DNA of 64,000 nucleotides from Dudresnaya verticillata. Lineage: Eukaryota. A model generated the notes under the pieces. That model worked only from the letters and a program-made list of their open reading frames with translations. It did no database searches and was not told where the DNA came from. Shown piece after piece: positions 7,933 to 64,000 of the stretch. Positions within the stretch are counted from its first letter, which is position 1; the number at the start of each line of letters is the position of its first letter. The DNA is taken from positions 2,666,001 through 2,730,000 of the forward strand of contig OZ374564.1 in the NCBI GenBank assembly GCA_977862235.1, read 5' to 3'. Both the position numbers and the translations under genes were made by a program.

Positions 7933-10882
7933 ATGGAAATGAGCCCGTCAAGTACGGATTGCGCTGAGCGAGAAAATGAAGCAAAGAAAGGAGGAAGTAA
8001 CGCGTGCGACGAAGGGCGTGTTGCTCTTCTGTATGACAGGGAAATGGTCAGCACTGCTATTGTCAAGAGACCGGGGACAAAAGAGGACGCAGACCAGTCT
8101 GGCAGGTATTGTATCACCCTGCATGGCCACAAATTGTCTCCCAGTCAGAAAAAAGGGGAGAAGCTGGTTGTGGTTTACCGAGCACAAATCATGCAACCGT
8201 ATGAGAAACTTCAGTACAAATACAAGTACAAGACAACGGACTCCGTTCCGCACACACTTGGGGAGATGGGTGGGGGTTTTCATGCATGGGATGTGAACTA
8301 CATTCAGGAGCTCGGCAATCAAGAAATCGCGCCGTTGTGCCAGAGACGGTTGTACTCTCCACGACAGGGCATAGTTCGTCGCAGAATTTACCCAATACTG
8401 AGCAATTGCCCCCCTATGTCACCTGCAGAACACAATGCCGCAGCGGTGGCCCCTACCGCATCGCCCCAGCAGATGACACCAGTTGACACGACAAGGCCAG
8501 CATCACCCCTCCAACAAAGTGCGGGGCCGCAAGCGGATGCCGCAGCGCGGTAAATTCGAACAACAACACCGCCTGTCAATGCTCCGAGCAGTGAGGAATT
8601 GAGTGAACCCCGAGAGCATTTGAGGGAGGCCAGCCATGATGATGCGGACGCCGTACGACACGTGTCGGAAAGTGATGACGACGCATATGACCCTTTTCAG
8701 AAGGTGCAGGTCAGGACGAAGCGAAAGTATACTTACAGGAAGAGAAAGCCGCAGACATTCAGTGGGAGAGGAAGTCTTCAGAAGAGACGTAAGAACCTCT
8801 TCAAAGACCTGGAACGCGCAAACACGCAGTCAATGAGATGCTGCATCGGGAACAAGTGCTTCCAAAGCGTGGAGCAAGTGTACTTCAAGGCGGAGGCGCG
8901 CAGAATTGCCGGAATGAACGTAGAAGCAAGGCGAACGTATCTTCGCAATCTGTTGGACACGACAAAGATGAAATACTTTTTCAACCGCCAGCCTGTCTGT
9001 TACAACTTTCTGGAGCAGGCCTTTGGATTCTCCCGTGACTTACAGACCTCTGTAAAAGGCACGAGGCAGTCCCGGAAGCTGCAGCTCCCAAACAATGCGA
9101 GGCGTGATACCTCATCCCATCAGCAGGATACTATCATTTGCTTCCTTGAACGTCTTGCAGACAGCACTGCTGAACCAATGCCCGATAATGGGGGGTCACA
9201 CCTCCCCTACTTTCAGAAATCAGTTGTGTATGAAATTTTCAAATTGGACCACACCAGGCTGTACAGAAACAGGGAAATTCCGTGTCAGAGTTACTTTTAC
9301 TTGGTATGGAAACACAGTTGCTCCCGCATTAAGGTGCGAAAGACACACCGATTTGCAAAGTGCAGCGAATGCGAACTCATTCGCGAGCGACTTTCTCAGA
9401 CAGGGACCTCTGGAGCAGGCACTGAACACCTGCATGAGCGGCGCAACATTCACTTGAAATTCATACAGGCAGAGAGACGTGAATATCAGAAAATGTGAGA
9501 AGGCGATACTATTGCCGCAAGAGTATTGCTCCCTCATAGTGGATGGTGCTGATCAGTCCGCATTTGGACTTCCCCATTTTGTGGTGTCGTCAAAAGCCAG
9601 CATTGGGCATGTCATGAAAGCGAAGCTTATTGGCGTGCTTGAACACAGGACTGAGAAGCGCCTGCACTTGTACACAATGACCGGTGAGTTCGAGACCGGC
9701 GCGAACCACATTATCGAGGCGTTGCACAGAACGCTTTCGGACAAACAGTCCAGAGGAGAGCTACAAGGGACTTTATTTCTACAAGTAGACAACTGTTCGA
9801 GAGAGAACAAAAATACCTTTTTGTTCTCATACCTGGAGAGTCTCGTTGCATGGGGTGTGTTCCAAGAGGTCTTCGTGTCTTTCCTGCCCGTCGGGCACAC
9901 TCACACAGATATAGATCAGGCCTTTTCGTGCACGGCACGCCGGCTTAAAGTTCGGGACGCAGTCACAATGACTGAATTGATGGAAGAGCTTCGGCAGTCG
10001 TACAGTCCAGAACCAGTTGTCAGTCGCATGCTTCAAATTGCGAATTTCTCAGGCCTGTGTCGACAGGAAGGATGCATTGGTAATGTTGAGGCATTCACGA
10101 CCTATCGCTATTTCAGATTCCACCGTGTGGGTCCAGCTGCGACGGAAGAGGCAGAATCTGTTTCAGCTTTTGTGACAGGCTGTCAATTGAGAATGACATG
10201 CGCGGATGACTGGGTTCCGTTGCAGACAGGAGGAGAGCATAAGGGGTTCATACTATCCCCTTCTGACCTTGGCAAGACTCCAGCAACAGTGGTCAAATCG
10301 CCGCCAGATTTGAAGGAAGTCAACGACAGGTTTCGTTCTGAAGAGACACGTGTGAATGACACGGGAAAGATGAGGGAGCTGCAGGAATTGCGTGACCACG
10401 TGTACAGAGATAGGCTGGAAACGTTTCATTGGGATATGGGACGCATATTTGAGACAAGGGGAAAGTACAGCGGAAGAGCGGCGCTGGAGTACGTACCGGA
10501 AGGGGATGACGGTGAGGAGGAGACTGTGACCCCCTCTTCAGACCTGCAGTACACGAAGAACTACTTCGTTGCCGTTGTGAGGGAGAACGCCACCGCACGA
10601 TGCCCATTTTGGCTTGGACAGATTCTAGATGTTGTGCAGGACGCTACGGGAAAGGCTACTGAGCTGTATATAAGATGGTACGAGGCGTATGACGGAAAGG
10701 GTGCTTGGGACGGAAAGTACAAGGCATCCATATACTCAGCGACTAAGCAGACATGGACTGGTACTGTCGGCGTCGCGACCGTAGTGGTCGAATTCGAAGC
10801 TCTTACGAAGAGACGTCTACCGCAGCTCGTCCAGAAGAGAATCAGAGAATCGCCGTTGTTAGTTAGGTATGCCGGATCTTGA
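7933..10882 (+). pseudogene. DDE-type DNA-transposon transposase (DUF7869-like family as I recall it), disrupted
   Basis: ORFs 7897-8553 and 8599-9498 share a frame and are separated only by TAA at 8551. A frameshift near 9490 joins ERREYQK to CEKAILLPQEYCSLIVDGADQ. Motifs: FAKCSECE, DGADQ, LFLQVDNCSRENKN, FLPVGHTHTDIDQAFS. Confidence 0.8.
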
Positions 10883-11830: not shown

Positions 11831-12249
11831 TTGTCGAAGCGTGTGTGTGTGGGTTTGAGCTCTTTCAGGGGCCGCTATTTCAGACTCCGCTTAAAATGGT
11901 GGTTGCTGTAGTGCATGCAGCATGCAGCACGTGTGTACGTCAACGAAGATTTGCAAATCGTCGTTGACGTAGACACGTCCGAGTAGTTCAGCTCGGCGGG
12001 TAGCGCGTCGGGGATGGGTGTTTGGTGATAGAGCAATGATACGCCAGGGGCGGACTGTAGACGCCCAAATCGCAAGTAGAAAGGGGAAGAAAACCCAAAA
12101 CGAAACACATCCAGAACGGTAGCGGACGCGGAAGCGCGGGTAGACAGACGCTTAGGTCTTCGGGTAGCGGTTGAGTGCGCGTGACGCAAAAGGGGAATTC
12201 CAGACCCGAACCGGCTTGCCGGGAGTTTACTGCTACGTCATAGACAAGG

Positions 12250-12415
12250 TACCTAAGTAATGCTATGGGGCCGCGGCGCAACGGCTGTATGATGTAATGC
12301 GCGGGAACCCGGGACACGTGTCGTGCAGAGGTGCGTCTGACACAACCCGGGGCGGTGCAGCCGCTGTACGCCGCCGTGCGCGTCTTACAGAAGCGTGTTT
12401 GCGCGGTACTGTAGA
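12250..12415. repeat. Dispersed repeat, homologous to 39359-39568
   Basis: Shared colinear blocks TACCTAAGTA, GCGCGGGAA..CGGGACACGTGT, GAGG.GCGTCTGACA, TGCAGCCGC, CTTACAG and GTACTGTAGA. Confidence 0.75.
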
Positions 12416-37923: not shown

Positions 37924-39071
37924 CTGTGGTGAAGTGAGCTGTGGCCCGCATGCGGCGCGCCGAAGGCGAGTCAACCGTAACGCATGATGTGGCAACACGC
38001 CACGTTGATGATCTGGCAACGTGTAACCGTGTCGGTTGTGTCCGCATTACTGTGCACTGGTACATATCGCTGTACTGTAATTGGAGCGCACCAACCGTAG
38101 CGGAGTATTTGTGGTATTTATTCTTTATTTTTAGTGAGTATCTGTACAGTGTGTAGAGTAGTGCGCCAGCCAATGAGATTGCTGCGCATGTCCGTGTCGG
38201 AGATTGGGACCAGCAGGGCCGATTCCACGATAGGACCAGACTACTAGGGCCTGGCCCCCACAGACCGCCCCGCTCGGTGCCACCGTGACTTGTATATCAG
38301 GACGGCACCGCAGAGGCTCCTAAGGTCAAAGAACAAGTACACATTGAGCCACAATCCCACTTTAGCCCTTTTCTTTACGGTTTTCCCCGCACCGAGCCCA
38401 GTACGGCCTACCATCACCACCGTTACGGAGGCCTTCCCGACACCCGTACTACCCCCTTGTCTGTTGGTTCCCAATACCCGTTTCGGTTAGCCGCTCGCTG
38501 TTCTGCGGTCTCGGTTCGAACTGCTCTACCACTCCGTGGAGGTAGTGTCGCTCTCGTCCCGTGAGGGAAAGTCAGGCCAGCTGTCCGTTACGGAGTTGGC
38601 GGTTTTTCACTGCACCACACCGGCGACATTTTGGTTGACAAGGACGTCATTCAGCCAACAGCGACCCCACCTTCGGAGTCTCTGCGGTGCCACCCTGATA
38701 TACAAGTGATGGTGGCACCAAGCGGTGCGGTCCGTGGGGGCCAGACCCTAGTAGTCTGGTCCTATCGTGGAATCGGCCCTGCTGGTCCCAATCTCCGACA
38801 CGGACATGCGCAGGAATCTCACGGGCTGGCGCACTACTCTACACACTGTACAGATACTCACTAAAAATAAAGAATAAATACCACAAATACTCCGCTACGG
38901 TTGGTGAGCTCCAATTACAGTACAGCGATGCGTACCAGTGCACAGTAATGTGCACACAACCGGCACGGTTACACGTTGCCCGATCATCAACGTGGGGTAT
39001 TGCCACGTCATCCGTTACGGTTGGCTCGCCGTCGGTGCGCCGCATGCGCGCCACGGCTCACTTCAACACAG
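37924..39071. mobile_element. Non-autonomous foldback/TIR element with about 400-bp inverted arms
   Basis: 37924-38325 is the reverse complement of about 38670-39071. The ORF track shows near-identical peptides at 37941-38156(+) and 38839-39054(-). Non-coding spacer of about 345 bp; no clear TSD. Confidence 0.85.
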
Positions 39072-39358
39072 ACCTCCCTCCTTAAATGGCGCCACGTCCT
39101 TGGGCGCCCACCTTCAGGTATTTCCATCAGCTGTCACACCCACACATTCAACCGATACGGTTAACGCGCTCAACTTTCCCTTCTCCTGCGTGCTGTGGTG
39201 CAAACGTCTGAAGACGGAACAACACCGCCGAGCAGTTCGGGGCTCGGTGGGTAGCTGCGCCCGTGGCGGTGAGTAGCCTTGCCTTGGACGGCTTGTGGTA
39301 GAGGATTGGACACCAAGGCCGGCTTGCCCGCTCGTTTATTGCTACGTCTGGGACGGCT

Positions 39359-39568
39359 TACCTAAGTATAGTACGGCGGTGCGGCGGCGGCGGTGCATGT
39401 GCGTAGCGCGGGAAGTCGGGACACGTGTTGTCCCGAGGCGCGTCTGACAGATCACCCGTCGCATGCAGCCGCGCGCCAGACAGGTTGCCGTGCAACCCCC
39501 TGTGTGGGCGCTTACACACACACGTGGACGCGTGTGCCTTACAGCTGTGCGCGCGCGTGTACTGTAGA
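39359..39568. repeat. Dispersed repeat, homologous to 12250-12415
   Basis: Same colinear blocks as 12250-12415, ending in GTACTGTAGA. Confidence 0.75.
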
Positions 39569-39756
39569 GCGTGCGCCTAAATAGATTCCCGGATGGAATA
39601 GGAAAGTAAAGCCCCTGATATAACTGAAATTCCGGTTTATTGGAATGCCAGAGACGAGGAGAATGGCTACGATGGAAAAGCCTGTTCGACCTTCCTGTCT
39701 GAGGTTGGTGTCAGGATCTAAGTATAGAGCATGCAAGTAAAGAGATTAAACTGAGT

Positions 39757-39875
39757 AGGAAAGGGGTTAGCGGAATAGGAAAGGGACGGGAGATAAGGAA
39801 TAGGAAAGGGCCCAATGGAATGGGAAAGGGCCCAATGGAATAGGAAAGGGCCCAATGGAATGGGAAAGGGGAACA
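39757..39875 (+). repeat. Purine-rich 20-bp minisatellite
   Basis: GGAAT(A/G)GGAAAGGGCCCAAT units. Confidence 0.85.
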
Positions 39876-40174
39876 AGGCTAAAAGAATCAGGTTAAAGGG
39901 ATAGAAGGTGAGTCGTCAGCAGGTGGAGTCCGGATGGCACCGTAGAAGTACAGTGCCATCCGCCGGAATCCGGGAACGGTTGGAGTACCAGCACGCTATT
40001 CAAAAAGCCATAGTGTGTAAACAAACGAGGGAAGAGACCAAATACCTCGCTAGATGAGATGCTGCAGTATATGGAAAGGTGCGCGAGCAGCGGGATCGAA
40101 CCGAACGGGATACGGTGCGAAAGGGAACCGAATGTATGGGAAAGTGGCCGGTGCGAAGGAGTAGGGAGGGGGAC

Positions 40175-40428
40175 GGATAGAATGGGAAAGAGAACGGATA
40201 GAATGGGAAAGGGGACCGATAGAATGGGAAAGGGGACCGATAGAATGGGAAAGGGGACCGATGGAAAACGAAAGGGGACCGATGGAAAACGAAAGGGGAC
40301 CGATGGAAAAGGAAAGGGGACCGATGGAAAAGGAAAGGGGACCGATGGAAAAGGAAAGGGGACCGATGGAAAACGAAAGGGGACCGATGGAAAAGGAAAG
40401 GGGACCGATGAATGGGAAAGGGGACCAA
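40175..40428 (+). repeat. Purine-rich 21-bp minisatellite, about 12 copies
   Basis: GAAAGGGGACCGAT(A/G)GAA units in tandem. Confidence 0.95.
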
Positions 40429-41066
40429 TACTAAAAGAACCCGGCTCTGGATGGAAGGATGAGTCGTTAGCAGGTAAAGTCCGGATGGCGCCGTATAAAT
40501 ACGGTCCTTCCCGGCGGCTTCCGTTGTAGAACTACAACGGCTTTCACAATGCCAAACGGCTCTGAAGACAGTCAAGATCAGATCCGGCTTTGGATCACGG
40601 ATCGGATCCGTGAGCATTCTGTTCTTCAATCCGGAGCATCGACGCCGTTGGCGTTACAAGGAGAACGGTGCAATGTCCGGAGCTTCGACGCGGTCGGCGT
40701 TACAAGGGGAACGGTGCAATGTCTCGTGAGAAGAAACAGCTTTGGATCTCAGATCTGACGAGAGGAGCCGTTACGGAATACACATCATCAACGCCGACAG
40801 AACCAAAACAGTATTCCCGCCAATAAGGCCAGATGACCGTTCCAATATCTACTCGAAGTGACGCAGTTCCACCGATCACCCGCCCCCTCCCCTCACCCAT
40901 TGCGCACTCCGAGGAAAGTTGAGTGTGGCGTGCGCGATTGCGAACCGGACTACGGCAACGTCTTGCGACGGTCTCCGACAATCCTCTCTCTACAAGAAGC
41001 GCGCTAACACGCAGACTTCTGCAGGCGACAGGCGATTCAGCGTTGCCTCTGAAGGATCCACGAGGG

Positions 41067-41089
41067 CGACGACGACGGCGACGACGACG

Positions 41090-41121
<32 letters not shown>

Positions 41122-41139
41122 AACGACGACGACGACGAC
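41067..41139 (+). repeat. (GAC)n microsatellite
   Basis: Near-perfect GAC run. Confidence 0.95.
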
Positions 41140-41531
41140 CCACCGCGGCGAAGCAATTGAGTTAATTACTTCTCTTCGGTTTCAATTAACGGTATGTAAT
41201 TGCAAATTTCTTTTGGTACCGCTTACACAATTGTTCGGAGTGATTCGAGTGGCGGTGTCAACGGGAACGGCCGTATACGGTCGTTTCCAAGTCGGACAGC
41301 ACCGTAATATTACGGTGCTATCCGATTGACAGTCGCAGTGTGAAGTTACGGTGGCATCCGAATCGGAAGCTTATCGGACAGCAAAAACGAAAGCGACTGT
41401 GAATCGGATAACACCGTAATATTACGGTGCTGTCCGGTTTGCCGTTTAGAAATTATTGTATACTGACTTGAAATTCCCATGTTCCACTTGTTTCAGATCG
41501 AAAGTAGTGCAATTGCGGAGCTCTGCACGGA

Positions 41532-44500
41532 ATGAACGGTCTTAACGGAGGTGATGGGGTCCAGGAGTCGGAGTTGAAGCTCGAGGAATATGGCTTACGT
41601 CTTATTCCGGAGGTCGCGGAGCTTCTGTGCGTCGTATGCCAGCATGCCGTATTCTTCGGTGTGCAAGGACAGGACAATCTCTTCAGGCATTTGCAGAAGT
41701 GTCAGCCGTGGAAACGGGTCACCCGCATCGAATCGAAGGAAGTGTACAAGTCGTGGGATACCGTCAAGAGGGCCTGTGTGCGCACGGCTTCTGAAGAGGA
41801 TTACCATGTGTACATTGGGAGCTCAGTTCGAAGCTCTTCTCGAAGAGCCGTGCGCAGGATTCCATTTTTAAGAGTTATGGAGTGCATTCCTTGCCCTCAA
41901 TGTTCGTTCTTGTCTTTGTCTTCTCCATCGTTGAAGAAACATTATGACGCCGAACATAACTCTTCTGGAAAGTCCATAAGTCTTGCGGAGATCAAGGGCC
42001 TCGGAGGTGTAAAGTGCCAGAAGCTGTTTAAGGGAACTGGCACAGGAAATCCGTTTCTACTAAAGGATGGCGGAGCAGCGGAGTGTACCGGGAATGGAGA
42101 AGCCCGGGCAAGCGGGGAAGGTTCATCTCATGTCCAGCTTCTATTGCACGAATTGAGCGAGGCCAGGAAAGGAAGGATGAAGGTAGAAGAGCCGGAAGAG
42201 AAGGACGTGAGGAGAATGGGTCGTTTTGCAAGTTGCACGAGGCCAGATTTGAAGCTCGAGCAGCTGCATCTCAGCATGGAGGAGGCTTCCAGGTTGAGCG
42301 GAGATGCCTGCCGCGGAGAGAAGGTTTTTGACTAAGATGAAGTCGAGCTGAAGAAGTGGCTGACAGAAGCCGTTCTTTCCGTATTCCAGCATGGCCGTCG
42401 CTGCTCACAGAGGCCCAATATGACGATGTCCAGGGTAATGTTCGCTGTTCGAGCACCTACTGGTGCGACGGGGAGCCAAAAGGTCGAGTTTGCCTGGGTA
42501 GAGAGGCAGTCCGAGAAGAGGTATGCCTCCTTCGTGTCTCGTGGAGCGTTAGCAATTCTACGCATGATTAATGCGTCTCGGGAAGGTGAGGAGCTCATCG
42601 CCAGTGAAGAATTACGCTCTGCCTGTGAGAAGGTGATGGAGGTGTATCGTGAAGAGACTCAGGAAGAACCGGAAGGCGCCGTAAAAATACGGCGCTGTCC
42701 GACGGGACCGTCCGAAAGTATAGTGGCGATGCACGCTTTGCTGAGAGCTTTGTTGTATGAAAGGGTGAGCGTGGATGAAGGCAGCCACTTCTGTGCTGCT
42801 CACGTCCTAACAACCTGTCTTTGTGTGAAGCGTGCGGGAGGGGGGGTTACATTTTCTGAGGGCAGGGATCTGTCTCCATTTCTTGCTGCACTCGCCTATG
42901 CGAGTTCTTGCTGCGCTTTCATCGACATATGTAGCGTTGAGAAGGAGGGTACTTGTGATGAGGAGTTGGCCAGGGTGGAGTTGAGGCATCAAGCCGGCGG
43001 GAGTTTAGGGATACATTTTCTCCAGTCCCTTTGCTTGCAGGCTCGACGGTTTCGGAATGAAGAGTACTCCAGGAACACATGGCTTCCATGTGACGATCCT
43101 GAGCACGTGGGCAAGTGCTGCGGGTACGTGGAGGGGCTTCACATGAGCCCTGATGAAATTGGTATTTGTGTGAAGAAGATGCAAAAGGAGGCGGTGAGCC
43201 TAATGTTCGACCCAACTGGTATTCTCTGCGGGGTAGAACTGCCAAAGGACTTTCAGAAACGCCTCTCGAATATGGTAGACGACACCAGGAAAGAAGACAT
43301 TCCGTATGGATTCATGGAAGATGAGCGGAATGCTGAGATTGTCAGAGAATGCCGCGATCTCGTCGATTCTGCGGTGAGAAAGATGGAATCATTAGACGAA
43401 CGAGCATTCGAGAAACGCGCAAGGGTGATGCTATCGAAACTAAGGAAGTTCCATGTACTCATGGTAGCCTGTTTGCATCTGGCGGGTGGTAATGTCTGTC
43501 GCGGTCCGGAGCTTGGGTTCTTGGCCGTGAGAAATACGGTCAGCGGACCACGTGGGATTCAACTCCCGGGTGGCCCCCGAGTTGCTGTAATTCCAAGTTA
43601 CGACAAGACAAGGAACATGAAGAGGGGGAGAATGCGTGTCATTAGCAAGCATCCTGATGTCGTTACGAGCAACCTGGTCAAATTGGCGATTCTCGTTGGG
43701 ATGGAGTTCAGGCTAGCGTTGTCCCGACTTGTCAGTAACAGGGAGTCAGGGCGTGCGGCCGCGGTCTACGAAGATGGGGCAATGGACTATCTCATGCCAA
43801 CGGCTAGTGCACGATCGGGGTGCCTGCAGCTCGCGGGGAACATGTGGAAGAGTTTTGGTCTGCCTGAAGAATATGGGGCGGAGAAACATCGACAGTGGTT
43901 TGGTGGATATGCGACCGACAAGGCCAATACGGACGAGAAGTTCCGTTACGTCGTGAAGATATTGAATGGTTTCAACAAGGGAGATTCGGATGCTGCTGCG
44001 CTGAATAGTGGAGACCTTGGAAGTGTGATGCAGGTGCAGGGAGCACACTCTGTGCATATCGCGAGAACTCTGTATGGAGCTTGCGCGCCGAACATTGCCG
44101 GTGGCGGTGAGGTAGATGATCGGAACATGAAGCAGTTCAAGCAAGTATCTGACTGCTGGCTCGCAGATTGCGGCTTGGACAAGAACTTTGATTGGAACAA
44201 ACTCCAGGGTGGCGATGAAGAAGGAGAAGGGCGTTCCCGATTGAGTCGGGTTGTGCAGGCGCGAACCGTTTCGGGTGTCAAACGCAGACTCTTCTCTAGC
44301 GGAAGCGGGACAGGAAGCGTGTCGAAACCGGAGAGCGCCGTAATTTTACGGCCGCTTCCGGAAAATTCAGCTGTTCCGAGAGATGCATCAGAGCCGGAGA
44401 GTACCGGAGGATTACGGTGCTGTTCGCCTGTGGATTTTTCAAGGCAAGCCTCCAAACCGGAGAGCGCCGTAGGATTACGGTGCGGTCCGGCCGTGGATGT

Positions 44501-47216
44501 TCCCAGACAAACCTCCGAACCGGATGGCACCGTAGGATTACGGTGCCTTCCGATTCCTAAACATTGTGATTCGGCGGGGCAAGCAAGCGAAGTTGAAGAC
44601 GCCGTAGAAGTATGGCCGCCTCCAGAAACGGGAATTGGAGAGGAAAGAGAGTCGCAGGAGCAAGGAAGGGATGTAGAGAGCGCTGATGGACCCAGTGGTC
44701 CCGGATTGGGAACTGGAGGTGGCGGAAAGGGTGTGAAAAGAGCGATGTCGGGAGACCTGGCTGGAGCCGTACTCCCACGTGCACGCAAGCAGAAGCTTCA
44801 AGGACAGGAGGCGTTGAATGAAGGGGAAGAGAGCAAAGGTGCGGAAAGTGGGAGCGCCGGGGTGTTGGACGGCAATGGGCATGGTCTCCGACTGGATGGG
44901 TGCGATGTTTCTGAGATGAGTCGAGAAGAGATGGCTGATCTATTAAGGAAGTGTTTGGCGACAATCTCGGAATCGGAGCAGAGAAAGAAGGCTTACGAGG
45001 ACGAAAAGCGGCACACCGAGAAGAGGGAAAGCGATAATATTATAGGATTGGGTGATGAACTCATGTCAGATGCAGCACGTCGCCGCTCTGATAAGGATAA
45101 CCGTACAGTCGAAGCTCGCAAAGCAGAGCGTGAGGCTTCAATTGCACGGCGTGTACAGGAATGCCTTGCGCACGCTGTAGGGGACCGTGATGCCGAGTTC
45201 AAAAGCGAAGAACAGAAGCTGGCAATGGAACTTGTATTGCGCAAAGAGAGTGACGCATTAATCGTGCTGAGGACAGGAGGTGGGAAAACCGCCGTTGTTT
45301 TTGGGCCCGCTTCAAGTGAACAAGGAGTGACTATTTTTATATGCCCCCTTCGATCACTACGGGAGGAGATCAAGTTGCGATGTGATGATATCAGGCTGCC
45401 CGTTGTCGATATTGAAGACTTGGACAACAACGAAGTTGAGAAGCGCTTGATGCCGAGAGGTATAATCCTTGCGTCCCCTGAGATCGTGTCCTGTCGAAAG
45501 TATAATTCGGTGCTGAGGAAACTGTACGGAGAAGGGAAGTTGATGCGTGTTGTTGTTGATGAGGCTCACATCGTTGTTCTGAGTGCCCACTATCGCAACT
45601 GTATGTTACGCATGCGGCACGCAAGGCCGGATGGTGTCCAGGTACCGATCATTATGATGACGGCCACTGCACCGCCACATTTGGAGAACCGTATAATAGC
45701 TGGTAACGGAGCCGTGGTCGGGAATACGAAGGTGATTCGTGGCAGCCTCCGTCGGGACAACATAATGTATACCGTGGAGCGGCTTTCGAAAACGACTGAC
45801 GAGGAAGTGGGGCACTGTATTAGACACGCTGTCACCCATGCAGTGAGTGAAGCGTTTATTGTGCGTGGTGGCGGCAAAGTTCTCTTGTGTGTGCTTACGA
45901 AGGGCGAGGCTGATCAAGCTCATGAACTTCTCGAGCGGAGCAGAATGTTCTCGGGAACAGCGCATATTATAATATGTAAGTATCACAGTGGAATGAGTGT
46001 TGAAGCACGGCGGAACAGTGTGGCCGAATGGGGCCGAAACGGGGCAGCACAGCGCTCCGTGTGTGTAATGGTGGCCACGGAAGGATTTGGTACAGGTATC
46101 GATGCCCCCGACGTGGCTCAGACTATAATTGTTGGGAGCAGCCGATCGCTAATGGAGCTGTATCAAGTGGGTGGGCGTGTTGGTCGGGATGGGAAACCAG
46201 GGAGCGTTAGTGTACTGTACCATCATGAGTATGCTGACCGCGCCAACGTGAAGGACACGGAGTCACTGATCGCCTTGAAACGGTTTCAACGGTGGGCCGA
46301 GGACACGAGAAAGTGTCGTGTCAAGGAACTTGAGCAGTATTTGGGATGCCCTGAGGAGCCTTCGGATTGCAGACAACGTGTGTGGGAGAGGACGGAATCT
46401 TACATTCGGTGTTGTGATTACTGCGCTAGGTTTTCTCCGGTAGTGGAAGCAGCGGAATCGCCGAAAAATGACGAATTGGACGAGTCGTCATCTGATGACA
46501 CCGGTTCTTCACAGCAGAGCCCGTCCTTACGTCCAGCAAGGAGTTTGCATGAGGTTGGTGGTGGAATAACCGAGCAAACGGCAAATACAGGGAGACAGAG
46601 ACAGACGGAAGAAACTGTGCAGTGCACCCCGGAGGATAGCGCGGTGGCTGCAGTTCGCACGGCGAGTGGAGCAGGCGAAGCAGTTGAAGAACTGCGGGAT
46701 CTTGCCGTCAAGCTGGCTGGTGTGTGCCCGCCTTGCTTTGGTCGTACGAGGCCCGGTGACAAGGTGTCAATCCGTGCCTGCCGGAACAGCCAGCATTCGA
46801 GGAGCTGCTATTTTCGGCAGTGTATACGGTGCATGTCCGGGGGGCACGATGCAGCCCAGTGCACTGTACGGCCTTGGAAGGCACGCGGCGGTGTGTTCAG
46901 CGCTGGTTGTTCGGAGTGCTCGATTCGAACGTTTGGTTCGAAGAAGCTCCATGTAGGGAGCGGCAGTCCGAGGCGAGGACAGAACGAGTATGGGTCGTCG
47001 GAACGTTGCCCGTTCTTCAGACCCGTACAGCTAGCGATGGCTTTTTGGAGCCACGAGGAGAGGCGCACGGAAATGCTTGCGCATCGTGGGATGCGACGTT
47101 TCAGGAGATGCTCAAGTTTGAAGGCTTTCTGTGAGGAGCTTGTGTTGGACAAGCCTGGGTGGTGCCCAGGAATTCTTGAGTTCTCTCGGTATGCTGTGGA
47201 AGTGTTTGATTTGTAG
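41532..47216 (+). pseudogene. OrsD/DUF3505-like Zn domain + tyrosine-recombinase-like domain + RecQ-type SF2 helicase + Cys/His knuckle fusion; single in-frame stop at 42333
   Basis: ORFs 41532-42335 and 42420-47216 are in the same frame with only one TAA between them. N-terminus: LLCVVCQHAV..RHL and CPQC..KKHYDAEH. YR-like: CRGPEL (R at 43500), YDKT (K at 43605), EKHRQ (R at 43890), QGAHS..ARTLY (H at 44046, Y at 44073). Helicase: LRTGGGKT, VVVDEAH, MTATAPP, YHSGM, VATEGFGTGID, QVGGRVGRDG, CR..CCDYC. C-terminus: CIRCMSGGHDAAQC. The helicase call is firm; the YR call is moderate. Confidence 0.85.
44328..44625. repeat. Cluster B: five in-frame copies of the 34-bp palindrome inside the CDS
   Basis: Starts at 44328, 44394, 44457, 44520 and 44592 (spacing 66/63/63/72). 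Translated as PESAVILRP, PESTGGLRC, PESAVGLRC, PDGTVGLRC and VEDAVEVWP. Confidence 0.9.
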
Positions 47217-47491
47217 TGCATGCGATGTGGAGATTGGTACGGAATGGAAGTATAGTTGAGTTCAGAATAAATCAGGAAACAACATCGCAGTAATGCAGGT
47301 CAAGGCGTGGGAGAAATTTACTGCTAGTGAAAGGGACGTGAATATCGTGTAGAGAAGCGGACTGTGTGCGAGAATATGTCAGTAATATGCGCAACGCAAT
47401 CGCTCGAGAATTATCGTTGAATGCGTGTGTTAGCGGGGAGAGAGTCGGAAGCTTACCTGAATGTATTTTTGTAGATGAAGATCGGGCTAGT

Positions 47492-47985
47492 CCGGAAGCC
47501 ACCGTAAATTTACGAGGGTTGCTGGTTGCCATGTCTCCACGTCCTCGAGATTAGCGTACGGGTGAACCGGAAGCCCTTGTAAACTTAAGATGACTTCCGT
47601 TGTATCTTGAACTATTGTAGAAGCGTCTTGAAGTGAAGTAGAGCCTAGGAGGGTGCAGTGCGTAGAGCGGGGGCGGCGTTGGAGCGGATAGCACCGTATA
47701 ATTACGGTTCTATTCGGTTTAAACGTGTAGAGCTGGAGCGGCGTTGGAGCGGATAGCACCGTATAATTACGGTGCTATCCGGTGGAGGAGTGTAGAGTAT
47801 GTAGAGCTAGGGCGGTGTTGGATCGGATAGCACCGTATAATTACGGTGCTATCCGGTTGAAGAGTGTAGAGTATGTAGAGTTGGGAACGCGTTGGAGCGG
47901 AGAGGACCGTATAATTACAGTGCTCTATGGTTTGAGGGTGTAGAGTATGTGGAGCTGGGACGGCATTCGACTGGAGAGCACCGTA
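47492..47985. repeat. Cluster C: palindrome array downstream of the helicase gene (65-74-bp units)
   Basis: Degenerate copies at 47492 and 47567; clear copies at 47684, 47749, 47823 and 47897 (spacer TATAATTA); left half-site at 47971. Confidence 0.93.
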
Positions 47986-48773
47986 CATTAATTCATTGAG
48001 CGGGAAGGCATCGCAATGTACGCGCTTCTTGCAACACGTGTCCACGGGTACACGCCCTACACTCTGTGCACAGTGTACCAACTGTAAACTCTGTACACGT
48101 GTGGCATCTTGGCGAGTACGTGTGTGAGGTGTTTCGGGTTGAAGTTTTGGCGCGGAGAAGGTCGCCGTGTGGGCATCGCAATGGCATAACTTGTCGAGAC
48201 GGATGAGGGTTTTTTGGTGGCGACGGTAGAGGCGGCTAACGTCGGGTGGCTTCTTGTGCACACTGGTGTGCAGTCGAGCTAGCACAAACCCACCTTCAAG
48301 TTGGAGTCGTGCTCGTGCGATGGGGAGTGTGCGAGGGGTCGGGGGCTGAGGAATTGGACGAGAAGTACGGCGGTTGCTGCTGTCAGTTGCGCGTCCCATG
48401 ATCAGCTAGGGGTGGAAGCGCCATGCGTGGACGGAGAGCATTGCGTCGACGGATTTAGGGTGTACGTGAGTCTAGATTTTGATGGGAAATTGCCTGAAAG
48501 TTTGAGATTGACTGTGCAGGCCCGTGCTCTCGACTGTCACCTCACCACCCCACCACCGTATCCGAACCCCGTCCGGCATCACCTGATGCGCCCCGTATCG
48601 TCAAACATACCGCTGCTGCAGATTTATGCCGCAAAGTGCGGTCTCTTCTCGCCCTTCCGAGTATTTGAGCGCTTCACTGAAGGTTTACACCGACAGGATC
48701 ACCCCATTGACCGTCGTTTGGCCCGCTAATCCCTGAAGCAGATGGGTGGCTTGTCTCCGGCAGCGCCAAGGAA

Positions 48774-49757
48774 ATGTATGTGCCTGCAAACTGGCTAAGA
48801 GCGTTTGGGAGTGGCAAGGAACTGCTCGAAATTGGCCTGGATCAGTCGGGAGACGGGTTTATCACGCGCTTTCGGCATAGCGTGCGAAGGAGGCTTGTTA
48901 CGGACCGTATGGCGATACCAGGACAATCAAGGTATGCTGTGCTGTTCTCAGGGGGTATCGATTGAATGGTCATTGCGCGAGTGCTTGATGAATGCTTGAC
49001 TCCCGGGGAGGGTATTACGTTGATCAATGTTGCTTTGGGCGCCGACTCGCAGGCTGTGGCGCAGTGTCCCGATCGACTAAGCGCAATTTCGGGATGCGAA
49101 GAGCTGCGTAAGCTGTCCGAGACGGACAGAGTCTTCGACTTATGCTGCGTGGACGTCGCCCCGGAACAGGTGGATGAGACGCTTGAAAAGCAGGTACGTT
49201 TGCTTGTGCACCCGTGCGACCAGGCCATGGACGCGTCGATAGGCACCGCGATCTGGCTCACAGCGCGTGCGGATGGGAGTTCACATAGCGGGCTGCAGGG
49301 AACAGCGAAGGAGGCACGAATTTTGTTCAGCGGGCTCGGCGCGGACGAGCTAATGGGCGGGTACAAGGGCCGACACCGGACGATATACCGGACGGAGGGC
49401 GTGAACGGTGTGCTGCGAGAGATGGACGCTGATTTGAGCAGACCGTGGTTTCGGAACCTAGGTAGGGACGACCGGCTTGTCGCAGACCATGGCAAGGAGG
49501 TCCGTCATCCGTTTCTGGATGAGGACCTCATCGAGTTTGTAACTGGCCTCCCTTTGGAGCGGCACGTTTGTGACCTCTCAAGACCAGATGGAATTGGCGA
49601 TAAGCACCTGCTCAGGCGCGCCGCAATAGTTCTTGGTTTGTCGGCTGAGACGGCAAGCGGTTCGAAGCGAGTGGGTCACGGAGCAAGCAGGTCATTGAGC
49701 GCAAAGGTTCTTGTTGAACATTTGGAGGCAGTTTTTGGCTTAAGCCAAAGTCTCTAA
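48774..49757 (+). pseudogene. Asparagine synthetase domain-containing (ASNSD1-like) C-terminal fragment
   Basis: AVLFSGGID*MVIA with an in-frame TGA at 48963, LFSGLGADELMGGY, RNLGRDDR and RHPFLDE. No N-terminal glutaminase domain is visible. Confidence 0.82.
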
Positions 49758-50108
49758 AGTGCGCCAATGAGTCCCATTGCCCGTCAACCGACGAAGACTA
49801 CGAAACAGGCGGCTCAACACGCATTAACGCGAACTTGTCCGCCACCCGGCTGGCTCACATCCGCATAGAGTGCTTGTCATAGCCTAGACACTAGTACCCC
49901 AGACTCGCAGCAAGTGAGAGGAAGCATTGACGAATTCGATTGCGGCGAACGTTGCGCGTGGTACCGTTGAAGGTTGCTATTCGATCCAAATACTCGTCAG
50001 ATTGGGCTTCACTGCCCAACCGCACAACATATCGCGCCATTAAGCTGGTATTGAAAAAACCGTATTGATCAAGCTGTAAATGTTGGAAAGGAGCTGTCAC
50101 AGACGCTG

Positions 50109-51324
50109 ATGGAGTGTAAGAACACATTGAGAGTTACGCTGCTTCCACTGTCGACAATCGATACTACAGCTCAGGGAAAAATTCGCTCTCTGGATACAAT
50201 CACTCTGAAGGAAAGGTCAGCGACGTTAAGTTCGCTAGAGCAGGCCGCGCTGGACATCGAACAGATCCTCCAACTCAACATCTTGAAAATGTTTCCGATA
50301 TTGAAGAGGCAATATCAACGCTTTTACAAAGCAGTAGATTCCAGAGCACTTGTGTTCCGCGACACAGTGCGCAGCCTGCTTCCCCAGGTGAGGGACGGAA
50401 ACACAGATCAGGCCGAAGTCATGCGCGATCTTGAAAAACCCATCTGCGTTGCAAAACACCAGGCAGAAGTAGCTCAGGACTTTATTGAGGCGAAGCAACA
50501 GGACTGCCGAGTTCTCGATGTGACTACTGCGAATCTCTTCAAGCATGGCTTCGAAGACTACCGCGATTCAGTAGATAATCTTGCTTCCGTCGTATCAGAG
50601 AATAGCAAACCGCGTCTATTGCTTTCTTTCGCTGGGATTAAGGCGACACACAGATTTGAGAATCAACTCCCCCCGTGCTTCTCATGCTTCTGGAGAGAGC
50701 ATATCGAGCTCTGAGACGTCGCCTGAAGGGGACCACTCGGCCAGTGACATTGATGACGAAGATGAGGAGTGGTTTGAGGACAAGGCGAGTTTGGAGTATT
50801 TGGGAAGATCCTGTGAGGTTTTGCGAAAGCTGAGGCATAACAATCGTCTAGCTGAGTTCGAGGCCTTATATGGAGTGACGACTGCTGGTCGAGCATTCCG
50901 CGCTGACGGCCGTAAAATGAAGAGGACTCGTATCGGAGATATTGTCCTAGAGGCAAACGGACGACGACAAATTGTCACTCCTGTTATGGTTGGACCTCCG
51001 AATCTTTCATGCACCGTTAACAAGCAGACTGTCAAAGTCGCATGGCATCCTACTGATAGCGAAGTTCTTCCTGCAACGGCGTTTCTAATCTCCTATCAAC
51101 CTACACGGAATGCCGCTCTCGACGAATTTGATCAAGCCGTCGCAGCCAATGAGCCAGTCGAGTACTTGGTGCAGCCTGATGGGGACAGCGTCCTTGCTTC
51201 TGCGTCACAGATGCTGTGCATCTGGAAGGCGTCTTTGACAACGCACGCCACTTTGTTGATCACGCGCTGGGAGCATCAGAAGATCCTGCAACATGCCAGT
51301 GCAGACCGGTTTGGCGTGCAGTAG
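50109..51324 (+). pseudogene. Unidentified, probably frameshifted coding remnant
   Basis: Two overlapping ORFs (201 and 247 aa) with protein-like composition (helical part, acidic SDIDDEDEEW). No motif recognised. Confidence 0.35.
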
Positions 51325-51644
51325 CGTGATGTCCTGAATGTGTCGAAAGAGCTCGTCAGTTGTGTATCCAAAAGCATGTCTCCGTGTGTGTAATGTGACG
51401 TGGTCGACCCGGAACTGGCGCTGTCGACCAAGGAGAGCAAGTCGGCTGCGCTGCTGTTTTACTTGGGTGTTGTGCTGCGCCCGACCAGCGACGCTAGCCA
51501 GAAATTGACCGAACGGGATTTGGTTCGTGTGTCGTCCATCTTCGCGGTGGAGATGGGAATGGTAGCCGTGCTAATGAAACCCACCGAGGCAATTGAACGA
51601 ATGAGGGTTGATGACGCAGAACGCTAGCTGGGGGGCGTCGAGCG

Positions 51645-51980
51645 CAGAAGCACGCGGCTCGCCATCGCGGCAAGGTCAAGTCTTTTCCGAGGGATGACCC
51701 CAAGAATCCGTGCCACCTCACCGCCTTCATGGTCTACAAGGCCGGTACGACCCAAATCGTCCGCGATGTTAACAGGCCAGGTTCCAAGCTGCACAAGAAG
51801 GATGTTGTCGAGGCCGTGACTGTCACTGAAACTCCACCAGTCGTGGCCATCGGCGTTGTGGGGCTCACTGAAACCCCATACGAACTGCGCTCGATGACGA
51901 CCGTTTGAGCCGAGCATCTCTCTGAGGAGGTCAAACGTCGTTTCTACAAGAGCTGGTATCGCAGCAAGAAGAAGACATTT
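51645..51980 (+). pseudogene. RPL3: 60S ribosomal protein L3 N-terminal fragment
   Basis: Manual translation: [60 protein letters not shown]...TTV*AEHLSEEVKRRFYKSWYRSKKKTF. Stop at 51906; start and C-terminal two-thirds are missing. Confidence 0.93.
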
Positions 51981-52299
51981 CTGCATCTTGCTTTTCTACT
52001 TTCGCTGTGAATATTTTGGCAATATTCCTGGGAAGGCGCTGCCATGCCGTCAGCGACTCCGCAGCAGGCCCAAACGGAGTGTTAGTTCGGAGCCGGGCTT
52101 CCTCTGGCCGAACAACGCGATCGAATATGGGTGTACCAGTATCCTGCAGTCGATATCCTCATCATGCTTAGAAGGAAGGCCCAGACTCTGTCTAGGATTG
52201 CACTTGGGAGGCCGCGGTCATTTGACTTCTTCCCACGGATCGTCGGGAAGCGAGGCCCGGATTGTCCTGGACAGTTGGCATGCCCGGGCTCCACTCTGC

Positions 52300-55004: not shown

Positions 55005-55270
55005 GTTGGGGTGTGTGTGTGTCCGTGTGTGTGTGGGTGTTGTAACGGGCGTTGCCGTTTTTTGCGGCGGAAGCGGGCGTTGCGGTATGTGTGTGTGTGC
55101 GCGGTAGTGTGTGGGTGTTGCGCAAGAAGCGGGGGGTGAGGGATATGTGCGTGCCGGTGTGTGTGGGTTTTGCGGAAGAAGCGGGCGGTGAGGTGTATGT
55201 TCGTGCGGGTGTGTGTGGGTGTTGCTGCGGAAGCGGGCGTTGCGGTGTGTTTGTGTGTGTGCGTGTTTGA
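55005..55270 (+). repeat. GT-rich degenerate minisatellite
   Basis: (GT)n runs alternating with GAAGCGGG(C/G)G motifs, about 4 units. Confidence 0.8.
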
Positions 55271-56052
55271 GGCGCGATGGCCTGTTGGCGGTTTGTATCG
55301 GTGGGGGCGTGGCAGGCTGGAGCAGCGGCACGCATGCCTGCCGTTTTGTGGGAGCCGGGGTCAATGGGCGCGCGAAGATAGTAACGGAACGCTCAACCGG
55401 TCATCAAAAGTAGCCAAGGGCGGCGAGGAGTGCGGCGCACAAATACAAAATAATGAAAAGCAGCCACGGAGGGGAGCCCACGTGTCTTGCAGAGGCGAGC
55501 TTTGAAAATCCAGATCACCGACGACACTCGACGCCGGTTTGGGGCGGAACATAAGAGCGCCGAGCGTGCACTGTCCACCCCCCCAAGCGCCGACTCTTTT
55601 CCCAACCACTGCGCCGCGACTTCGCCCACCCCAACGCCCCGCGCTCATCTCAACTCGCCCACTCTCGCAGCGCCGCGCTCCCTCCTCCCCGACCCGACAC
55701 CGCAAATGCCGGCGCCCTGCAACGCGAAAGTCTGCTCTGCACGCCCTTCCCGCCCATCTCGCGCACTGCCACAACTTTCGCACGCTACACCCCGCCTTGC
55801 TTCCGCCGCGCGCAAAACGCCTGTGCAGTCCGCCCGCGCACACTCCGAGGCGAAAGCGCATCACTGCGGCGCAAGCGCATCACCGTTACGTGCGGGGGCG
55901 CAAGTTATCGTTGCCGACAGGGCCGCCGCGACGCGACTACTTTCCCGTACCGCGTGCGAACAGCGCGAAAACGACACCCTCCATCCTACCGTTCGCCACA
56001 GCGAATCCGGATCCGATCCGGATCCGATCCGGATTCAGAACCGGATTTAGAA

Positions 56053-56468
56053 CCGGATAGCACCGTAATATTACGGTGCTCTCCGACGCGAGGCCCTAAC
56101 CGCCGCAACCGAATCCGCGAACGGCTCACCGCCGTGCGCGTCAAGAACCGGATAGCACCGTAATCCTACGGCGCCATCTGGCGAGCGGTTCACCGCCGCG
56201 CGCGTCAAGAACCGGATAGCACCGTAATCCTACGGCGCCATCCGGCGAGCGGTTCACCGCCGCGCGTGTCAAGAACCGGACAGCACCGTAATCCTACGGC
56301 GCCATCCGGCGAACGGCTCACCGCCGCGCCCATCAAGAACCGGATAGCACCGTAATCTTACGGAGCCATCCGGCACAAGCCACTAACCGCCGCAGCGGTA
56401 TCCGCGAACGCCTCATCGCCGCGCGCGTCAAGAACCGGATAGCGTCGTAGTCTTACGGTGCTCTCCGG
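56053..56468. repeat. Cluster D: palindrome array (64-bp core units) immediately upstream of the orphan ORF
   Basis: Copies start at 56053, 56148, 56212, 56276, 56340 and 56435; spacers TAATATTA, TAATCCTA, TAATCTTA and TAGTCTTA. Confidence 0.95.
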
Positions 56469-62562: not shown

Positions 62563-63458
62563 CCGGAAAGGACCGTAACCTTACGGTGCCATCCGGTTGT
62601 GCATGTTTAACAAGCTATCACCGGATAGGACCGTAATCTTACGGTGCCATCCGTTTATGCATACTTAGCAAGCCATGACCGGATAGGACCGTAATCTTAC
62701 GGTGCCATCCGGTTGTGCATACCTAGTATCCGATGACCGGATAGGACCGTAACCTTACGGTGCCATCCGTTTATGCATACTTAGCAAACCATGACCGGAT
62801 AGGACCGTAACCTTACGGTGCTATCCGGTTGTGGATGCTTAAGAAGCTATCATCGGATAGGACCGTAATCTTACGGTGCCCTCCGCTTGGGCATACTTAG
62901 CAGGCTATCACCAGATAGGACTGTAGTAGTACGGTGCCATCCGTTTATGCATACTTAGCAAGCTATGACCGGTTAGGACCGAAATATTACGATGCTATCC
63001 GGTTGTGCATACTTAGACCGCTATGAGCGAATAGGACCGTAATATGACAGTGCCATCCTGTTGCCTAGCAATCTCTGACTGGATAGGACCGTAATCCTAC
63101 AGTGCCATCCGGTTGTGCACACTTAGCAAGCTATGCCCGGATAGGACCGTAATATGACAGTGCCATCCGTTTGTGCGCACTTAGCAAACTATGCCCGGAT
63201 AGGGCCGTAATATGACAGTGCCATCCGGTTGCGCATACCTAGCAAGCTCTGACTGGATAGGACCGTAACCGGATAGGACCGTAATATGACAGTGGCATCC
63301 GGTTGCGCATGCCTAGCAAGTTCTGACTGGATAGGACGGTAATCCTAAAGTACCATCCGGTTGTGCATACCTAGCAAGCTATGACCGGATAGGAACGTAA
63401 CCTTACGGTGCCATCCGGTTGTGCATGCTTAACAAGCTATCACCGGATAGGACCGTAA
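62563..63458. repeat. Cluster E: 58-bp tandem array = 34-bp palindrome + 24-bp linker
   Basis: 15 full copies (62563, 62621, 62679, 62737, 62795, 62853, 62911, 62969, 63027, 63079, 63137, 63195, 63269, 63327, 63385) and left half-sites at 63253 and 63443. Linker consensus TTGTGCATACTTAGCAAGCTATGA. Confidence 0.97.
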
Positions 63459-64000
63459 GGCTCCCTTTTGCGTTGTGCCTGGCCGCAAATGATATTGCGA
63501 TATTAGTTCTTGATACCGAAGCGGTGTGCCCTACATCCTAAAAGTTGGTCAACCAGGCAAGGGCAGGAAAATCTAAGCTGTAGTTTTGGAATGATTCCTG
63601 ACCATAAAGCCTCAAGCAGGAGACTTTTCCACCATGGAAGCCCAGTCTCTGGGTGGTTAAAACCGTGCTTGTGAGTGCCTATATAATATCGCTCGTTCCA
63701 CAGAGGAAAGGAGGGTGAGGAATATACTTCCTTTTATTCTGAGGGAGGAGACGGTTTTTCAATTCCATGTTGTTGCAGTTGGACGAGGTTCATATCAATG
63801 TCAATGCTGGATCGACTGGTGGTCCTTTAGAAGTGCAATAGGACAAGAAATGATGCAGTAGAACAAGCGTTGAGGATTGGAAGACAAGTTACAAAAGAAA
63901 GATTTAGACAATTGCATGGCGACGGTCACAGGTTGGACTACCTTTGCTTCGGCTAAACGAAGCCATCCCAGAAAGGTTTGGTTCTGCAAGAAATGTAAGA

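Follow-up and report, generated by a model that had tools for sequence, protein, structure and literature searches.

Background

TLH genes are the closest described counterparts of a gene that we analysed on a 64,000-nucleotide stretch of Dudresnaya verticillata DNA (GenBank assembly GCA_977862235.1, contig OZ374564.1, positions 2,666,001 to 2,730,000 of the forward strand; this whole stretch is called the window below, and positions are counted from its first letter). Like this gene, they encode C2H2 fingers and, ahead of a RecQ helicase, a conserved domain, and blocks of tandem repeats flank them. In Magnaporthe, the TLH regions contain helicase-associated repeats, one of which, HAR-D, includes a 23-base-pair (bp) imperfect palindrome (PMC1635262). 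The TLH domain has been assigned no function, and the word 'recombinase' occurs nowhere in 10.1101/2024.02.27.582403; in a survey of mostly non-subscription papers, supplements excluded, we found none linking this domain to tyrosine recombinases. The present locus differs from TLH genes in that a single shared 34-bp palindrome both builds the arrays and sits inside the open reading frame (ORF), and in its location among ordinary genes, in a window where a search for four types of tandem telomere repeat found none (the host repeat unit may differ).

Cre-loxP, Flp-FRT and Xer-dif share with this locus the protein fold, the catalytic residues and a 34-bp layout of two inverted arms around a short core; loxP itself is built as 13 + 8 + 13 bp. 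Such systems act on a matched pair of sites, whereas here there are dozens of tandem copies with 12 different centres and a helicase is fused to the predicted recombinase-fold domain. In the suicidal integrases of the SSV family, too, the site lies in the ORF of the recombinase itself and is translated, in a stretch where sequence changes are tolerated; these have one attP, of tRNA-gene origin, at which integration splits the integrase gene (PMC7253208, in the part available), while here six palindromic copies lie in a eukaryotic gene that is unsplit at all six. Cryptons and Starships are likewise eukaryotic elements led by a tyrosine recombinase, and they have short terminal direct repeats (available parts of PMC11162782 and PMC3627910). 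The words 'helicase' and 'RecQ' do not occur in the available part of PMC11162782, and the available passages on Cryptons with RecQ describe no recombinase-helicase fusion of this kind.

Here we propose, with a probability that we put at roughly 0.45, that the 34-bp palindrome is the putative cognate site of the element's own recombinase-fold domain, and that the copies inside the gene are mainly binding or self-control sites. The value of the finding lies in this candidate site for a TLH-type recombinase; the in-frame embedding is by itself a minor, lineage-specific feature. The locus supplies a candidate DNA substrate with a defined consensus for the conserved domain of TLH genes, whose binding or cutting becomes addressable by gel-shift and reporter experiment, and a new eukaryotic recombinase-site pair, if true, would also be of interest as a tool.

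A TLH-type gene with a recombinase-fold domain

The gene comprises the following features:

41532 to 47216, + strand: TLH-type gene of 1894 codons (ORFs, homology, Pfam)
43452 to 44189, + strand: tyrosine-recombinase-type catalytic domain (residues, fold model)
44190 to 45182, + strand: linker of 331 residues between the recombinase-fold domain and the helicase
45210 to 46193, + strand: RecQ-type helicase core (Pfam DEAD and Helicase_C, family profile)
41192 to 41496, + strand: putative intron of the 5' untranslated region (GTATGT ... CTGAC ... CAG; motif scan)

Two ORFs, 41532-42335 and 42420-47216, lie in one frame, the first of them ended by a premature in-frame TAA at 42333-42335 (codon 268). 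Since similarity to 20 relatives continues through this TAA, 41532-47216 is a single gene starting at 41532 and carrying either a nonsense codon or a sequencing error. The order of its domains is C2H2/OrsD, tyrosine-recombinase-fold domain, linker, RecQ helicase and C-terminal Cys/His region. The N-terminal part (41532-42332) gives weak C2H2 matches and an OrsD (DUF3505) match at E = 7.5e-4, below the Pfam cut-off, and OrsD was found in 13 of the 29 aligned family members. In residue numbers counted from 42420, Pfam places DEAD at 931-1088 and Helicase_C at 1148-1258, and the family profile matches RECQ5 and BLM (E about 1e-65). We obtained 116 relatives with phmmer, the closest helicase relative being 38% identical; a word-based search with the recombinase region returned no matches and, by tblastn, the gene matches only itself in the window, with no second copy. 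The look-alikes in the Atlas are fungal (best 0.97; OrsD cluster 0.87). Upstream of the helicase lies a conserved domain of the size and position of the TLH domain (about 250 residues), which makes it a candidate counterpart. This layout matches that of TLH genes as described in 10.1101/2024.02.27.582403.

The same upstream domain carries a tyrosine-recombinase catalytic set that is nearly invariant in 29 aligned rows: R361 (28/29), K396 (29/29), R491 (26/29), H543 (29/29) and Y552 (28/29); the His of HxxR is not conserved among them. When the domain model (predicted local distance difference test 74.5) was submitted to VIA fold comparison, the best match was an archaeal Xer protein (Z 8.8, root-mean-square deviation 3.6, 148 aligned residues). 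Among 48,161 chains, the top 29 rows were all recombinases, TopIB, protelomerase or proteins of the same fold; these include Ndc10, MrpR and SroF, which we take to share the recombinase/TopIB fold. With a longer model, all 12 of the top 12 matches belonged to the recombinase/TopIB-type group. Foldseek found no significant match for either model, Cre heading its list and the best E being 1.7, and no Pfam family covers the domain. A tyrosine-recombinase (Lambda-Int/TopIB) fold with its catalytic residues is thus supported by the predicted structure, the structural support being modest.

The 34-bp palindrome

Copies of the palindrome lie before, inside and after the gene, and around a second long ORF, ORF B (features without a strand are given by position only):

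39930 to 41437: upstream copies, starting at 39930, 40481, 41292 and 41404, with a right half-site at 41347
42669 to 42702: in-ORF copy, 36.8 bits, centre AAAA, peptide PEGAVKIRRCP
44328 to 44361: linker copy, 31.8 bits, centre ATTT
44394 to 44553: three linker copies in a tandem array of 63-bp period, starting at 44394, 44457 and 44520, centre GGAT
44592 to 44625: decayed linker copy, 1.1 bits, centre GAAG
47492 to 47990: downstream array with a period of 65/74 bp, its last unit a left half-site (47971) cut off at the core
56053 to 56468: six copies spaced by 64/95 bp, the last one 18 bp short of the ORF B start codon
56486 to 61153, + strand: ORF B, 1555 residues, flanked by sites on both sides, with no internal site
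62563 to 63460: array of 15 full copies, 58-bp period (motif matrix, tandem-array scan)

At 10 mismatches or fewer, the window holds 35 copies, all between 39930 and 63418 and none before 39930. A motif search gave 49 strand-matches, against 0 in each of 100 shuffles. Our scoring matrix was trained on the 29 non-coding copies only, with 95,260 positions as its null; its best score in 1-38000 is -9.2 bits, and these 38 kb of host-type DNA contain no full site. Each half-site reads CCGGA-n5-CCGTA, with positions 1, 6, 7 and 9 lax, around a free 4-bp centre: two inverted arms and a short core, 34 bp in total, in the arm layout of loxP and FRT, whose cores measure 6-8 bp.

The centre is the most variable part. 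Its four bases take 12 forms in the 35 copies, so that partner sites lack one common core, and only eight of the 35 centres are self-complementary. Within the 58-bp array the minor-allele fraction is 0.23 at the centre, 0.07 in the arms and 0.125 in the spacers, making the centre the least conserved. The two arms do not covary (0.094 against 0.099 in shuffled data, 332 of 500 shuffles being as high), and each half therefore fits the consensus independently. Between four different arrays the spacers are unrelated (6 of 6 pairs at shuffle level), the site being common to all. Because the synonymous core is kept inside the ORF (see below), the array spacers are unrelated and the arms show no covariation, the motif appears, as judged from its letters, to behave as a duplex two-half-site protein-binding sequence of loxP-like size. 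A helical phasing of the spacings was considered and rejected (Rayleigh p about 0.06 on 12 non-independent spacings), the largest array, of 58-bp period, being out of phase.

The outer copies stand close to the two genes. The last upstream copy ends 95 bp before the ATG of the TLH-type gene, and the downstream copies begin 276 bp after its stop; the putative intron would hold the site copies at 41292-41437. Also upstream, 41288-41441 forms a 49-bp inverted repeat (92%), each arm of which carries a site with a self-complementary centre, and which encloses the lone right half-site. Of the 35 copies, 21 flank ORF B, which has no Pfam, PHROGs, homologue or Atlas match of note. In the 58-bp array, a half-site of 16 bp is duplicated at 63253, and a left half-site at 63443 closes the array. 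Both downstream-lying arrays thus end in a left half-site halted at the core (47971 and 63443), and the core is where a tyrosine recombinase exchanges strands. As core breakpoints these half-sites are suggestive only, since they represent two of about eight array ends (estimated p about 0.2); no matching left-end half-site was found in the window.

Copies inside the gene

The initial annotation had described five palindrome copies in the linker, spaced by multiples of three. We indeed find them at 44328, 44394, 44457, 44520 and 44592, at spacings of 66, 63, 63 and 72 and in frame, four strong and one decayed. That annotation had overlooked a sixth copy at 42669, as well as the gene start at 41532 and the TAA at 42333. 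All six are in codon register 0 of the ORF 42420-47216. The first four linker copies have 4 to 7 mismatches per 30 arm positions, and the three with the GGAT centre score 27.8, 37.3 and 44.7 bits. The fifth has 14 mismatches of 30, which is chance level by mismatch count; its 1.1 bits nevertheless exceed all 95,260 null positions and everything scored in 1-38000, which marks it as a genuine though heavily decayed copy. The sixth falls in a helix-helix loop about 16 residues longer than in most relatives (53 residues, against 36-40 in 14 of 20 homologues). The linker is similarly elastic, measuring 36 to 506 residues (median 110) in 61 homologues, so both in-gene locations are length-variable across the family.

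Is the motif kept in the gene for its DNA or for the peptide that it encodes? The linker copies translate as PESAVILR, PESTGGLR, PESAVGLR, PDGTVGLR and VEDAVEVW, of which three fit the previously proposed P(E/D)xxVxLR repeat exactly and two deviate from it. At fourfold-synonymous core positions of the five strong in-ORF copies, 29 of 30 bases equal the non-coding consensus, and at non-degenerate first positions 19 of 25 do; between linker copies, the arms agree at 20-25 of 30 positions and the 29 bases upstream at 9-22 of 29. The motif thus seems to be conserved as DNA rather than as amino acids. None of the 116 homologues carries the peptide motif and only two of 61 linkers (those of P0120 and P0052) have a strong internal repeat of any kind, which suggests that the peptide repeat is a by-product of the DNA motif. 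A family-wide embedding of sites is rejected at the protein level by the same two counts. The P0120 linker (residues about 642-694) has a repeat of its own, of 31-residue period, and the linkers are identical in three members of that cluster.

The initial annotation had also taken the multiple-of-three spacings as a sign of selection for an open ORF. Frame 0 of the linker is open, the other frames containing 12 and 16 stops, and only one of 20,000 simulated neutral linker sequences was free of stops; moreover, the 61 of 121 relatives that passed a two-domain filter each keep recombinase and helicase in one chain. The recombinase-helicase fusion was under selection, and spacings in multiples of three follow from it. 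The spacings themselves, however, add little weight: frameshifts are lost from any ORF that stays open, and of the site's three registers, in which 11, 45 and 29 of the 58 non-coding copy-orientations contain a stop, register 0 meets stops least often. The chance of three independent copies all falling in register 0 is about 0.15. The contrast drawn with non-coding periods of 58, 64 and 74 bp holds for those values, but two of the nine distinct non-coding spacings, 75 and 117, are divisible by three, both involving decayed copies.

A cognate site or something else?

Under our favoured reading, two recombinase-fold protomers would clamp the two half-sites, as Cre does on loxP. One copy of the site would have entered the linker and multiplied by 63-bp tandem duplication, and the single-chain arrangement of recombinase and helicase in relatives would explain the loss of frameshifting variants. 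The six in-gene copies, in two length-variable, insertion-tolerant loops, could then act in self-repression or in loading of the helicase on the element, and strand exchange, if any, would take place further out, for instance at the 47971 and 63443 half-sites. We propose binding for most copies because mismatched centres would block Cre-type exchange; the variable centre fits binding better than homology-dependent crossover, and autoregulation by the in-gene sites is plausible. This reading is supported by the layout, with sites grouped ahead of the ATG, in two loops and beyond the stop codon of a frame that stays open, and by proximity, the protein next to the sites having the fold and the R-K-R-H-Y set.

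Several observations weigh against it. The link between protein and site would consist of adjacency plus geometry. Around ORF B, in which no recombinase fold was found, the sites are arranged in the same way, so that a different protein may be the binder. Recent copying of the bare site could likewise have produced the high identity at synonymous sites. The nonsense codon makes current function of this gene copy doubtful, and the fold comparisons lend modest support (Z 8.8 at best; lowest Foldseek E 1.7). Finally, no second element with arrays was found: scans for the exact motif in metagenome and viral contigs gave 0 loci, and related-locus scans gave 0 viral loci and two short, distant metagenome loci, both without such palindrome arrays.

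The possibility of recent copying leads to an alternative in which the in-ORF copies are functionless passengers that slippage, gene conversion or stray action of the recombinase left in loops able to accommodate them; the site would be used elsewhere in the element and its in-ORF copies would persist only as long as the frame stays unbroken. The peptide is absent from 116 of 116 homologues, one copy (44592) is nearly erased, two of the three GGAT copies match the array before ORF B, taken in reverse complement, at 30-31/34 positions, and both the low stop-proneness of register 0 and the premature stop in the gene agree with this. However, passengers would not explain why the linker arms are more alike than the bases upstream of them, why synonymous core positions are intact or why the gene acquired the site at two distinct positions, and we consider this alternative unlikely. 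Binding by another factor, be it the ORF B product, the gene's own zinc fingers or a host factor, would make the loxP-like size a coincidence. It would account for the 21 of 35 copies around ORF B, one ending 18 bp before its ATG, and multi-copy arrays are typical of repressor or partition sites. On the other hand, no DNA-binding family could be recognised in ORF B, the geometry of the site, 34 bp with two-fold symmetry and a free centre, is better matched to a recombinase dimer than to C2H2 fingers in tandem, and no full site occurs in the 38 kb of host-type DNA; such a binder appears less probable still than passengers. Least of all do we expect the motif to act as a single-strand hairpin or cruciform, like an integron attC or a protelomerase site, opened by the fused helicase. 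Strong copies do fold with a 4-nucleotide loop (-6 to -17 kcal/mol) and protelomerases are among the weak fold matches (Z 3.0-3.4), but the arms do not covary, 11-13 of 28 copies lack pairing at 6-29, 7-28 and 9-26, and few centres are self-complementary.

Could the in-gene copies be crossover sites? The initial annotation had suggested that recombination at the linker sites could separate or swap the recombinase and helicase modules. The motif's absence from 116 homologues, the scarcity of strong linker repeats (2/61) and the differing centres argue against this, and a crossover among the three GGAT copies would remove just 21-42 residues. An extension of that idea is a self-inactivating switch, in which the segment between 42669 and the linker is deleted or flipped. 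These copies do lie on either side of the catalytic domain, a crossover between 42669 and a linker copy of the same orientation would always stay in frame and remove 553-641 residues, and archaeal SSV-type integrases carry a site within their own ORF (PMC7253208, in the part available). Among 19 copies in both orientations, the one that 44328 matches best is the reverse complement of 42669 (29/34), the centres of that pair being ATTT and TTTT. Yet 29/34 is barely above other pairs (27-28), the centres differ as they stand (AAAA against ATTT, GGAT and GAAG), tblastn found no deleted, inverted or chimeric copy in the window, and the 19 homologues without a helicase match may be cut or broken records. 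We regard such a switch as improbable, if slightly less so than an unrelated binder. A broader proposal, that TLH-type genes drive an undescribed class of eukaryotic site-specific mobile elements with a loxP-like 34-bp site, and that in this lineage the enzyme could flip or excise its own recombinase module via 42669 and 44328, is a longer shot than either; these two copies have near-matching cores in inverted orientation on either side of the catalytic domain. If it were true, the gene could switch between a recombinase-helicase and a zinc-finger-helicase.

Neighbourhood of the element

The window is eukaryotic-looking and intron-poor, with an uninterrupted 1466-residue ABC transporter and a protein kinase at 30-37 kb. 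Neither the ends of the element nor terminal direct repeats were established in it, none of seven window proteins is present in the protein collection as an exact match, and an Rfam search of 38000-64000 gave no match. One further feature separates the two site-flanked genes:

48842 to 52010: broken-looking gene pieces between the TLH-type gene and ORF B

These are an asparagine-synthase-like piece (Pfam E = 6.7e-15), an ORF matching the stonustoxin helical domain (E = 1.5e-7) and part of a gene for ribosomal protein L3 that an in-frame stop interrupts; they are possibly captured cargo or decayed duplicates.

To the left, 8599-10882 holds two ORFs in succession, the second with DUF7869 (E = 1.9e-47), which may be another mobile-element gene. 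A dispersed repeat of about 155 bp (12211-12364 and 39319-39472, 73% identity) may mark host DNA just left of the element. At 39797-40520, two G-rich tandem arrays, of 20-bp and 21-bp units, are each followed by a similar stretch of about 25 bp and a single palindrome copy, in what looks like a duplicated unit at the element's left. GC skew is steadily positive on the + strand across the element (38000-50000), peaking at 42-48 kb. Just upstream of the ORF B site array lie a 52-bp GT-rich tandem array (55062-55248) and short 11-12-bp repeats containing CCGGAT (56005-56058).

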